64,000 bases of DNA from the IMG/VR virus record IMGVR_UViG_3300027798_000020, positions 1 to 64,000 of that record, one strand, 5' to 3'. Of this stretch, positions 110-29,812 are shown piece by piece. Source of the DNA: a virus. The number at the start of each line of letters is the position of its first letter. Position 1 is the stretch's first letter. A program made the translations under genes and the position numbers. The notes under the pieces were generated by a model, which was not told where the DNA came from, made no database searches, and saw nothing but the letters and a program-made list of their open reading frames with translations.

Positions 110-135
110 GCACCGTTAGATCAGTTGGTTAGATT
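110..135 (+). pseudogene. 5' fragment (acceptor strand + D arm) of a split tRNA, probably tRNA-Asp
   Basis: gcaccgt-ta-gatc-agttggtta-gatt; gcaccgt is the exact complement of acggtgc at 640-646. Confidence 0.8.
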
Positions 136-163
136 GGCTAAATAAAGTTAGGAGAACTAACCT

Positions 164-547
164 ATGCCAATTGCTAACTGTATTAACTGCGAAAAAGAAT
201 TTAGATGGATGCCATCGCAAAAGTCTGGAAAGTATTGTTGTAGTCCCTGTCAGATTGAACATAGACTAAATGAAGCTATTGCTTCTGGCAATTACACAAA
301 GAACAATGCAAAAACTTACTTTAAACGCAACACGCCATATAAGTGTTCTTGTTGTGGTATAAGCGAGTGGAACGGCAACCCCATCGTTTTACAAATTGAT
401 CATATTGATGGTAATAATTCCAATGATGTGATTGAAAACTATCGTTACTTATGTCCTAACTGTCATACTCAGACTGACACCTGGGGAGTTAAAAATGCCA
501 GTGAAGAAGGTAGGTTGCGAATGAGTAAGAAAAAATTGGTCTCATAG
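164..547 (+). CDS. HNH homing endonuclease-like protein with N-terminal Cys-rich Zn-binding motifs
   Basis: CxxC...CCSxxC N-terminus; CSCC...IDHIDGNNSND...N...LCPNCH HNH signature; AGGAG RBS at 150-154. Confidence 0.9.
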   Translation: MPIANCINCEKEFRWMPSQKSGKYCCSPCQIEHRLNEAIASGNYTKNNAKTYFKRNTPYKCSCCGISEWNGNPIVLQIDHIDGNNSNDVIENYRYLCPNCHTQTDTWGVKNASEEGRLRMSKKKLVS

Positions 548-612
548 TATATCGGTTAGTATAATGGCCTGTCACGCCGTAGGGACGAGTTCGATTCTCG
601 TTGAGACCGCCA
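538..612 (+). tRNA. tRNA-Asp(GTC)
   Basis: Acceptor ggtctca/tgagacc, G73, atggc-ctGTCac-gccgt, CCA; 5' end overlaps the last codons of the HNH ORF. Confidence 0.93.
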
Positions 613-618
613 ATTTTG

Positions 619-650
619 CGCCAGGGGTTCAAGTCCCCTACGGTGCGCCA
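619..650 (+). pseudogene. 3' fragment (T arm + acceptor strand + CCA) of the split tRNA
   Basis: agggg-ttcaagt-cccct T arm, acggtgc, G73, CCA, with no D or anticodon arm directly upstream. Confidence 0.8.
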
Positions 651-3248: not shown

Positions 3249-3401
3249 ATGCCAATGTATGAAACAACTGTTAGAACACCACAAGGTGAAGAAAAGAAAA
3301 GAATCTATGCGGATACACCGCAAGAGGCTAAAAAACTTTTTGAACAACTGTATGGTGGACCAAGAGCAGTTCCCTACATTCCACATATTATTCCAAGTTA
3401 G
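3249..3401 (+). CDS. Small hypothetical protein (50 aa)
   Basis: AAGGA RBS then MPMYETTVRTPQGEEKK...; fills the gap between two tRNAs. Confidence 0.7.
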   Translation: MPMYETTVRTPQGEEKKRIYADTPQEAKKLFEQLYGGPRAVPYIPHIIPS

Positions 3402-3407
3402 TATTAT

Positions 3408-3483
3408 TCCCCAGTAGCACAGCGGTAGTTGCACTTGACTGTTAATCAAGGTGTCCGTGGTTCGATCCCACGCTGGGGAGCCA
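3408..3483 (+). tRNA. tRNA-Asn(GTT)
   Basis: cttga-ctGTTaa-tcaag, CCA. Confidence 0.93.
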
Positions 3484-3484
3484 A

Positions 3485-4267
3485 TTAAAAGTAATGTTTG
3501 AGATCGTGTTCCCACATTTGATCTGCAACTATTTTATGAGTTTGAGGTCCGGGGTGCATGTTGTCCCTCCCATTATCAACTTTGTCAGGAAATTTAAAAT
3601 TTATTTTTCTAAAACGTCGATACTTATTAATAAAAGGATCTATTTTAGAATCTTCAACTTTGAGCGACCAAGAACAATAATGAATGTAGGCGTTGTATTT
3701 CTCTGCTAATAAGTCTAGAATACATAAACTACGGTCAGCTTGAAATAGAGCGTTTTGTTCGTCTACTAATAACGGCTCAAAACTTTCGTGCCCGTGGTGT
3801 CCTGGCATCCAGTCAACTATTTCGCCGGACGGTTTGACAATTTGTCTTCTAGTCCAAGGCGGCCGCATAAAGATTATATGACGGGGTCTTATAGCATCAC
3901 CGTGCTCAGATAAAAATGATGCTTGAGTATCTATGCCAGCGGCACCCACTGCAAAGTTCCAGTATGGTATATCCTTGCCTGTTTTTGCTCGAATCTTTTC
4001 AAGTATTTGATAAGCCCAGGTTGCTTCCTTAGGTACTCCTGTACCTTCAGTAAAGCTACATCCAAGAAACAGTATCGGTAAAGGACTAGGTAAATTAAAT
4101 TCGTCACATCTAAATCCGTAACTGTTAAATTGATAACCAAATGAGGTAGGTGTATAAGGATTAGGGCCGTATTGTCCTTCTTCTTTATATGCTTCCAGAT
4201 TATCAGAAGGACACCAGTTAAAATAACAGTTCCTTCGATCGTGTATTCGTCGATTAAAAAATTGCAT
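3485..4267 (-). CDS. SGNH/GDSL-like hydrolase-fold protein
   Basis: FLGCSFTEG block I and C-terminal D..HPG. Confidence 0.6.
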   Translation of the reverse strand: MQFFNRRIHDRRNCYFNWCPSDNLEAYKEEGQYGPNPYTPTSFGYQFNSYGFRCDEFNLPSPLPILFLGCSFTEGTGVPKEATWAYQILEKIRAKTGKDIPYWNFAVGAAGIDTQASFLSEHGDAIRPRHIIFMRPPWTRRQIVKPSGEIVDWMPGHHGHESFEPLLVDEQNALFQADRSLCILDLLAEKYNAYIHYCSWSLKVEDSKIDPFINKYRRFRKINFKFPDKVDNGRDNMHPGPQTHKIVADQMWEHDLKHYF

Positions 4268-5499: not shown

Positions 5500-5637
5500 A
5501 TGAAGATCAAAGAAACTCTCGATAAAGCGTATGGCAACGTACCGCGTGAAACTACAATCCTATTTGATCTTTCGTGGATACAAACTCGAAGCATTAAATA
5601 TTATTGGATAAGATTTAAACGATTATTTACAAGATAA
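5500..5637 (+). CDS. Small hypothetical protein (45 aa)
   Basis: GGAG RBS, MKIKETLDKAYGNVPRET... Confidence 0.55.
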   Translation: MKIKETLDKAYGNVPRETTILFDLSWIQTRSIKYYWIRFKRLFTR

Positions 5638-5840
5638 CCCGGGTTACACTTTGTACTGTTAATTAAAGTGGGTAATTGCCAATACCATAAGAGCACGGCG
5701 CATTGGATCTGCCGCAAGGCCCGCTATATGGGCGACTTGAGAAATCACAAAGGCGGGGACGCTATCCCGTCTAAATGGAAAAGAACGTGGACGGGGTAAC
5801 CACCCAGTCTAGGGCCTATGTGGTGTAGGTAGCTAGACAC
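5638..5840 (+). ncRNA. Structured non-coding RNA (copy B), probable homolog of 654-848
   Basis: Shared 5' cc(g)gtta-cac..gtg hairpin and 3' gacRgggt...gt..ag-gg-[hairpin with gtgg loop]-ag-ct..ac-ac module. Confidence 0.65.
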
Positions 5841-6021
5841 TTTATTAAAACAAACTTAAATCCCTAAAAAGATCAGGTTTGGCATCCCAGTCACTGTGAT
5901 AGGCATAGCCCATATACTTAATACGCCTTAGTTTGTTTTAATAAAGTACATTTAACTTATCTATAAGATAGGTAGGAAGGACAGGGCACCAGCGTTTAGC
6001 AAAAGCCATAAATGTACTTTA
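5839..6021 (+). repeat. Two adjacent elements closed by perfect inverted repeats (18 bp and 13 bp)
   Basis: 5839-5856/5930-5947 and 5942-5954/6009-6021. Confidence 0.75.
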
Positions 6022-29712: not shown

Positions 29713-29812
29713 ACAGATGTGAGTGGAATATGGTAGACCTCCTCCCTTCGGGGAGGGAACGAGGCTTGGTCTTAGACTGCCTTTGTAGGTTCGAATCCTA
29801 CCATCTGTACCA
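29713..29812 (+). ncRNA. tRNA-like RNA lacking a 7-nt anticodon loop (UUCG tetraloop instead)
   Basis: acagatg/catctgt + A + CCA, T arm gtagg-ttcgaat-cctac, cctccc-TTCG-gggagg hairpin, long extra arm. Confidence 0.8.

Follow-up and report, generated by a model that had tools for sequence, protein, structure and literature searches.

A split tRNA-Asp gene enclosing an HNH endonuclease gene and a second, intact tRNA-Asp gene in a phage tRNA array

Anatomy of the split tRNA-Asp locus

The window analysed here (64,000 nucleotides, one strand) is the first 64 kb of the 111.1-kb IMG/VR virus record IMGVR_UViG_3300027798_000020. CheckV puts the completeness of this record at about 31%, and it therefore probably derives from a very large phage. 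ARAGORN called 23 tRNA genes within the first 9.3 kb of the window. At positions 110-650, the two outer parts of one tRNA gene enclose an open reading frame (ORF) of the HNH type and a different, intact tRNA-Asp(GTC) gene. The locus stands between a tRNA-Ile(GAT) and a tRNA-Trp gene of the phage. The features of this locus, together with the tRNA fragments found beside related cassettes, are collected in Table 1.

Table 1. Features of the split tRNA-Asp locus and tRNA fragments flanking related cassettes (positions are those of the window or, for other loci, of the tRNA)
Feature	Locus	Position	Strand	Remark
5' fragment, type A tRNA-Asp(GTC) positions 1-25	Window	110-134	+	25/25 identical to intact genes
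Left junction, 8-base GGTTAGAT	Window	127-134	+	Common to resident D loop/stem and 5' end of HNH cassette
Leader hairpin of HNH gene	Window	127-162	+	Arms GGTTAG (127-132) and CTAACC (157-162); conserved in all close relatives
Predicted HNH (His-Me finger) endonuclease gene, 127 aa	Window	164-547	+	From ORF list; family residues kept
Carried intact tRNA-Asp(GTC), type B, encoded CCA	Window	538-612	+	ARAGORN; Rfam tRNA, 59 bits
7-base filler ATTTTGC, right junction	Window	613-619	+	Putative origin given in the text
3' fragment, type A tRNA-Asp positions 47-77	Window	620-650	+	31/31 identical to intact genes
5' fragment	L093	tRNA-Val 4-21
5' fragment	L098	tRNA-Ala 6-28
3' fragment	L084-86	tRNA-Val 45-75
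3' fragment	L111/112	tRNA-Val 40-65
3' fragment	L105/106	tRNA-Val 43-75
3' fragment	L103	tRNA-Ala 43-73
3' fragment	L062	tRNA-Asp 42-66
3' fragment	L060	tRNA-Glu 49-75
3' fragment	L061	tRNA-Glu 48-67

The origin of the outer parts was traced by exact scans of viral contigs, one for each tRNA half, which retrieved 38 and 28 loci. The gene to which they belong, here called type A, is 77 bases long and stands whole in 42 places on other viral contigs; in these the scanned halves lie 24 bases apart, and every intact copy (for instance L004:6289-6365) is read as tRNA-Asp(GTC) by ARAGORN. The 5' fragment comprises the acceptor strand GCACCGT, U8A9 and the full D arm, and the 3' fragment comprises three bases of the variable loop, the T arm, the acceptor strand ACGGTGC, G73 and CCA. 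The 21-base middle of the gene (positions 26-46), including the whole anticodon arm, is replaced by 485 bases in the window, so that the outer parts together encode no complete tRNA. Because both parts are identical to a gene found whole in 42 other places, the arrangement is not due to chance. The 3' part of type A was absent from 185,579 bacterial and archaeal species genomes (one genome each), which indicates a gene of phage lineage. Broken type A copies with no nuclease gene nearby were found on three contigs (L003, L012 and L040). The proposal that only the anticodon stem varies holds for the type A alleles, of which there are 8 natural anticodon-stem variants, but fails for a wider set (type C), in which the T stems vary too. 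We take it as no more than a hint; the exact-match patterns that fetched the loci also partly shaped the type A result.

A preliminary description of this DNA had placed the outer halves at 110-135 and 619-650. Both are present, and their match to intact genes covers 110-134 and 620-650. The same description had noted the HNH ORF and the different tRNA-Asp between the halves, the overlap of the inner tRNA 5' end with the HNH stop codon (TAG at 545-547, tRNA positions 8-10) and the missing anticodon arm of the outer tRNA, all of which we confirmed. It had also proposed that the outer tRNA was probably once a tRNA-Asp, in agreement with the anticodon GTC of every intact relative.

The locus could in principle be a chimera, in which contigs of two phages were joined at a shared tRNA sequence: the record was assembled from a metagenome, and different phages have tRNA genes in common. 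However, a separately assembled metagenome contig of 12.7 kb (L132) overlaps positions 1-828 of the window, agrees with it at every base but one (713) and has the filled arrangement as well. The filled allele is thus not an assembly artefact. The junction homologies (8 and 2 bases) are moreover far below the word length of an assembler, and the same architecture recurs in two further contigs from two different samples (L052 and L053, see below). A chimera is thus barely conceivable, and the split tRNA, the HNH ORF and the intact inner tRNA at 110-650 are real. L132 adds 11.9 kb upstream of the window, with more tRNAs, a tmRNA and an odd tRNA-Asp.

We searched for an empty version of this site, which the preliminary description had expected in related phages. 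Near and distant DNA searches with positions 1-1100 of the window found no relative of the locus in cultured phages, only scattered tRNA matches. Viral contigs gave no exact match to a 26-base word from the right flank, and the left-flank scan of metagenomes retrieved the same phage with the same filled allele only, and no empty site. Relatives do carry the outer tRNA intact, in the 42 places mentioned above, but the viral-contig and metagenome scans found no intact gene at this site in this very phage. The tRNA arrays of its kin are too shuffled to provide a syntenic empty site.

The carried tRNA-Asp, here called type B, has copies identical over 75 of 75 bases in at least 10 further viral contigs. 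There it stands in varied contexts with no HNH gene upstream, for instance 4 bases after a tRNA-Trp. Since identical copies stand without the HNH gene, type B is a widely distributed resident rather than a dedicated 'resistant' allele; the cassette would have picked it up, or has long lived beside it. In the 111-kb record, the carried gene is the sole tRNA-Asp called by ARAGORN, and the ORF is the only member of its HNH family. The same phage has a further, odd tRNA-Asp about 1.2 kb upstream of the window (on L132), so compensation by the carried copy may not be strictly needed. The identity of the carried tRNA to genes of other contigs and the perfect state of both outer remnants fit a recent event; perfect remnants would also fit selection for some use.

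The two junctions differ in kind. The mutual similarity of all cassettes of the Asp clade begins at GGTTAG(A), and that between the window and related cassettes starts at 125-127. This cassette-start motif coincides with GGTTAGAT in the D loop and stem of the resident tRNA, which identifies the left junction as an 8-base microhomology. The right junction consists of the filler ATTTTGC, which is probably the donor's spacer followed by the first 2 bases of the donor's next tRNA: in L059 and L054/55, the tRNA-Asp is followed by ATTT and then by a tRNA-Glu. On this layout, the right junction probably lies two bases into the donor's next gene and involves no homology, a placement that rests on 2 bases. 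The donor phage itself was not found in the viral-contig search, where the best relative of the HNH protein was 79% identical.

The HNH protein, its leader and the tRNA linkage of its family

The Pfam matches of the window protein are all of HNH type, with none to GIY-YIG, and are weak and below threshold (HNH_3, 17.1 bits against a cut-off of 24.8; HNH, 16.5 bits against 21.4). A phmmer search of the PDB retrieved only ScoMcrA, with an E-value of 0.32 over the core. By tblastn we obtained 257 phage records, mostly annotated as HNH endonuclease and including T5 hegA and T4-type genes, which match over the catalytic core; for T5 hegA, the core alone aligns (46% over residues 58-111). In an alignment with 11 relatives (12 proteins), the window protein keeps 18 of the 18 family-invariant residues and the catalytic motif D-H...N...H, formed by H80, N92, H101 and the nearly invariant D79. 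The CxxC pairs of the core (C61/C64 and C97/C100) are conserved in the 12 proteins, and an N-terminal four-cysteine finger (C6/C9/C25/C29) is invariant as well. An AlphaFold2 model with a mean pLDDT of 78 has a strand-strand-helix core made up of two strands (77-80 and 93-96) and a helix (98-101); its top Foldseek matches in the PDB are the HNH nucleases PacI, EcoKMcrA, ScoMcrA and Cap5, with E-values of 0.03-0.2 and low TM scores. The basic C-terminal tail is 9-20 residues shorter than in the relatives. Judged above all by its catalytic residues, the ORF probably encodes an HNH nuclease.

In order to determine how this family is placed relative to tRNA genes, we searched viral contigs and found 260 relatives of the HNH protein, of which the best 80 loci were kept. 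Among the ten closest loci (64-79% identity), a called tRNA-Asp(GTC) directly follows the ORF in eight; in the remaining two, L054/55, an Asp-like gene follows that ARAGORN missed. Except in L052/L053, the stop codon of these ten ORFs is U8-A9-G10 of the tRNA, as in the window, and this register is kept despite widely differing tRNA-Asp sequences and protein tail lengths. Over the best 80 of the 260 loci, the ORF runs into a tRNA on the same strand in about 42; positions 8-10 are the commonest stop register there, and other registers occur.

The linkage extends to other isoacceptors. In a maximum-likelihood tree of 44 full-length proteins, the enzymes linked to tRNA-Asp and those linked to tRNA-Val(TAC) form separate clusters, and random shuffles of the labels were never as clustered as the data (0 of 500 for Asp, 0 of 500 for Val(TAC), and 0 of 200 with all labels together). 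Other clades are tied to tRNA-Val, Ala, Gly or Glu. Overlaps of this kind are also seen in cultured phages with annotated genomes; in Streptomyces phage Spilled, for example, an HNH gene overlaps a tRNA-Gly by 15 bases.

The HNH gene is preceded by a leader of 29 bases (135-163). Its hairpin, which starts within the 5' tRNA fragment, encloses a CTAAATA box (138-144) and a Shine-Dalgarno sequence AGGAG (150-154), and ends 1 nucleotide before the ATG in the window and 0-3 bases before the AUG in the family, whose leaders hold a (C/T)ATAAATA-like box and a Shine-Dalgarno site. The stem shows neither variation nor covariation within the Asp clade. Between clades, it covaries: both sides change and pairing is kept. 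In the Asp and Val clades, the 5' arm of the hairpin resembles the D loop and stem of the matching tRNA. A reading of the TAAATA box as a late promoter of the T4 type finds no support, as TATAAATA is not enriched in the window (5 found, 7.4 expected); CTAAATA is depleted there.

This organization suggests two brakes on expression of the nuclease. The hairpin probably buries the ribosome site and would keep HNH expression low. The last two or three HNH codons and the stop codon lie inside the carried tRNA, so that cleavage by RNase P at the tRNA 5' end would leave a message with no stop codon, probably a second brake. Both a hairpin over the ribosome site and loss of the stop by tRNA processing were proposed for T4 segB and are mentioned for the T5 F-Tfl enzymes, where control via processing of the tRNA transcript was suggested (PMC2330249). 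Genes for tmRNA, of interest if HNH messages lose their stop codon, are present in several of these contigs (L132:7891-8320, which is the window's phage just upstream of the window, and L007, L030 and L061).

tRNA fragments beside related cassettes, and empty and filled sites

To see whether other cassettes have broken tRNA genes, we compared the unannotated flanks of 80 loci (the best 80 of the 260) with 1,951 called tRNAs and checked the matches by eye (Table 1). In these flanks, the 5' fragments end by about position 33 and the 3' fragments start at position 36 or later; the stretch lost between them takes in the anticodon loop in every case. Whenever an intact tRNA adjoins the cassette, it has the same isoacceptor identity as the fragment. 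The majority of the family's cassettes retain a single remnant or lack remnants altogether. A mirror layout was observed in L060 (2884-3500) and L061, where an intact tRNA-Glu precedes the leader hairpin and the HNH gene and a 3' tRNA-Glu fragment comes directly after the stop; the whole copy is thus upstream of the nuclease gene and not downstream. In L105 (about 3331-3405), a dead, chimeric tRNA-Val with unpaired acceptor strands adjoins an HNH cassette.

The same outer tRNA is split a second time, at different junctions, in L052 and L053, which are the same phage in two samples (the L053 contig is 335 kb long). The sequence upstream there is GCACCGTTAG. These contigs carry another HNH variant (67% amino-acid identity) and another inner tRNA-Asp. 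Their 3' remnant extends from about the second base of the anticodon to CCA, with an internal gap of 6-7 bases. A dead tRNA-Cys, with the 3' half of its anticodon arm deleted, lies just after the split tRNA-Asp (L052, about 935-1005).

One may ask whether the outer halves still work, either because the 485 bases are removed as an intron or because the acceptor strands and T arm serve as a tRNA-like handle for processing of the enclosed HNH-tRNA transcript. Both remnants in the window are perfect copies whose acceptor strands can pair, and both halves are kept in L052/L053 too. On the other hand, the outer gene entirely lacks an anticodon arm, and splicing could therefore not yield a tRNA; the T stem of the remnant is broken in L052/L053, and in most family cassettes at most one remnant is present. 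Introns of group I or II and other ribozymes were rejected, since Rfam gave no match to any intron or ribozyme family in 90-870, even at E-values up to 10. That the halves still function is therefore most improbable.

A pair of empty and filled sites was found for another member of the clade. L058 has a decayed 5' copy of its own tRNA-Asp, then the HNH gene, then the intact tRNA-Asp. The upstream flank of L191 and L204 matches that of L058 (80% over 388 nt), the downstream gene order is common to both, and in L191/L204 the flank leads straight into an intact tRNA-Asp with no HNH gene. From the matching flank and gene order, these sites are an empty and filled pair. The tRNA-Asp genes of L058 and L191 are identical but for 4 base pairs of the anticodon stem. 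Presence and absence of the cassette at one site are thus observed for L058 versus L191/L204, and not for the phage of the window itself.

These data bear on two explanations that dispense with homing into tRNA-Asp. In the first, tRNA arrays recombine readily, and an accidental break or slippage during replication fused the D loop to a fortuitous GGTTAGAT and left the HNH-tRNA segment within the tRNA-Asp gene; the HNH enzyme would have had no role in this and no specificity for tRNA-Asp. The arrays of related phages are indeed heavily rearranged, broken tRNA genes occur with no nuclease gene beside them (L003, L012 and L040), and a microhomology with an illegitimate join is what any break repair gives. 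However, shuffling of this kind would not be expected to place one HNH clade repeatedly inside or against tRNA-Asp and other clades against tRNA-Val, Ala or Glu, to leave flanking fragments always of the matching isoacceptor, or to split the same outer tRNA twice by two cassette variants. We consider it unlikely. In the second, the protein is a real nuclease that does not home to tRNA genes, stands beside them because tRNA operons supply its transcription and tRNA processing regulates it, and spreads by ordinary recombination. In favour of this, a tRNA-embedded stop codon and the leader hairpin suggest that expression is coupled to the tRNA transcript, and the carried tRNA also occurs without the HNH gene. 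Yet it offers no reason for the confinement of each clade to one isoacceptor, for matching flanking fragments that lack the anticodon region, or for an empty and a filled site whose tRNAs are distinguished by the anticodon stem alone; we consider it very unlikely.

We therefore favour the view that the ORF belongs to a family of free-standing homing endonuclease genes of phage tRNA arrays, each lineage tied to one isoacceptor (Asp in the window), which would enter by cutting the target and exploiting break repair; judged from sequence comparisons, this is likely. The preliminary description had already read the locus as a mobile HNH-plus-tRNA unit that targets the tRNA of its own isoacceptor. 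That reading is supported by the closest relatives, which abut tRNA-Asp, by clades that follow particular tRNAs, by the second split allele of L052/L053, by the pair formed by L191 and L058, and by matching tRNA fragments that flank cassettes in the Asp, Val, Ala and Glu lineages. Its two further proposals are that the enzyme would cleave the resident tRNA gene and that the carried copy may resist cleavage. The evidence on these is indirect, namely footprints that in every case lack the anticodon loop and, in the L058 and L191 pair, linked and unlinked tRNAs that are alike except in the anticodon stem.

Proposed route of entry and relation to known systems

According to this homing model, during a mixed infection the enzyme would cleave the resident gene (type A) within its anticodon stem-loop or beside it, and the break would then be resected. 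Repair would copy from the donor phage, the left D-arm end annealing to the GGTTAGAT that opens the leader hairpin of the cassette. The right end would be sealed by an illegitimate join 7 bases past the donor tRNA, with no homology because the donor tRNA-Asp was of a different type. The expected product begins with 25 bases of the old gene and ends with 31, between which stand the leader, the HNH gene and the complete donor tRNA-Asp; the 21-base anticodon arm is lost. If donor and target were of the same type, the right end could use tRNA homology, which would leave a 5' remnant and one whole tRNA, as in L058. Judged by the natural footprints, the likely cut site falls in a segment of about ten base pairs that surrounds the 5' side of the anticodon stem-loop.

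A broader proposal can be formulated, in which such cassettes form a widespread class of 'cut-and-replace' gene drives on RNA genes, undescribed in the literature that we could search. Small HNH nucleases, each clade specific for one isoacceptor, would enter at the border of the D arm and anticodon arm, carry or rebuild a whole tRNA, and reuse the D loop of the target as one arm of a translation-blocking hairpin, and cleavage close to the anticodon would make anticodon stems change fast and in a compensatory manner and would help unrelated phages to acquire identical tRNA genes. This remains tentative; we see it as close to an even call that tilts slightly against.

Some mobile elements integrate into tRNA genes and bring along a duplicate of the tRNA 3' end, which restores the function lost by insertion. 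Their entry depends on integrases and attachment sites, and a short duplicated stretch makes the same gene whole again. The cassette of the window differs from them in that no integrase is involved, a whole different tRNA gene would restore function, and entry would proceed by break repair.

Free-standing homing endonucleases in phage tRNA regions, to which the preliminary description had referred, are well exemplified by T4 SegB, a GIY-YIG enzyme encoded in a phage tRNA cluster that cuts within tRNA genes (PMC2330249). Like the window system, segB lies in a tRNA cluster and carries adjacent tRNA genes with it; the next tRNA directly follows its ORF, so that 5' processing would separate the ORF from its stop, and a hairpin over its ribosome site was proposed (PMC2330249). 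In contrast to the window protein, SegB is not an HNH enzyme, so that the window system is not a member of the SegB family; SegB reads a T-arm motif common to many tRNAs, its gene is located between tRNA genes, and it is not reported to split a tRNA, to keep to one isoacceptor or to bring a replacement. The T5 F-Tfl enzymes (2004; cited in PMC2330249 and PMC5714182) resemble the window system, according to the citing texts, as small nucleases encoded in a phage tRNA region, and F-TflIV is listed there among HNH enzymes (PMC5714182, PMC2330249). In the descriptions given by these citing texts, a split tRNA with a carried replacement is not mentioned.

Fractured phage protein genes (PMC2677866) and split genes for ribonucleotide reductase (RNR) or RNA polymerase (PMC5418858) share with the window a free-standing nuclease gene inside a host gene with no intron or intein. 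In those cases, the gene halves still give a working product, through split inteins or as two subunits (PMC2677866, PMC5418858). Unlike them, the broken RNA gene of the window is dead, and a second whole gene in the cassette supplies the function. In the literature accessible to our search, we found neither an HNH-plus-tRNA cassette that splits a matching tRNA nor a family organized clade by isoacceptor. As far as we could find, T4 SegB and T5 F-Tfl are thus the precedents, and the splitting of a matching tRNA gene together with a carried substitute is new here.

The locus illustrates how a selfish element can occupy an essential RNA gene with no intron, by killing the matching tRNA and supplying a whole substitute. 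The main value of the comparison is a family-wide, testable rule, a four-part pattern in which each clade keeps to a single isoacceptor, the stop codon falls within the tRNA, a hairpin forms in the leader and the flanks contain pieces of the matching tRNA. This pattern could explain the shuffled tRNA arrays of phages, their dead tRNA pieces, and the identical tRNA genes of unrelated phages. The narrowed cut site makes specificity directly testable with the 127-residue protein, and small sequence-specific HNH enzymes could have practical use.

Several other features of these arrays were noted. A second kind of tRNA-Asp(GTC)-like gene has an unusual anticodon loop, (U/C)UGUCUA, in which U37 and A38 replace A37 and C38, and was found at L132:10733-10807 (about 1.2 kb upstream of the window in the same phage), L025:10672-10746 (minus strand) and L054, about 3435-3511; speculatively, this form could evade nucleases directed at the anticodon. 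Positions 5630-5855 of the window contain a non-coding element of about 215 bases, which recurs with 77-86% identity in several phage tRNA arrays (L050:4618-4845; L025:5512-5720 and L047:5788-6016, both on the minus strand); both strands of its apparent stems show changes. The stretch of 205 bases that follows the split tRNA (651-855) aligns only loosely to this element. Neither region has a match in Rfam, and a structured RNA in 651-855 was rejected, as folding on either strand is no better than that of shuffled sequence. At 1925-2016 of the window, ARAGORN called a 92-base tRNA with anticodon TAT (Ile), to which Rfam gives only a weak tRNA-Sec-like match; this gene is 91-95% conserved in L047 and L002, and the same kind was called in L025 and L048. 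ARAGORN also called a 100-base 'tRNA-Arg(tcg)' at 29713-29812, far from the array. Finally, a gene for PanD (aspartate 1-decarboxylase) lies inside the tRNA array of the window, at 1070-1441 (Pfam Asp_decarbox, E 4e-34).
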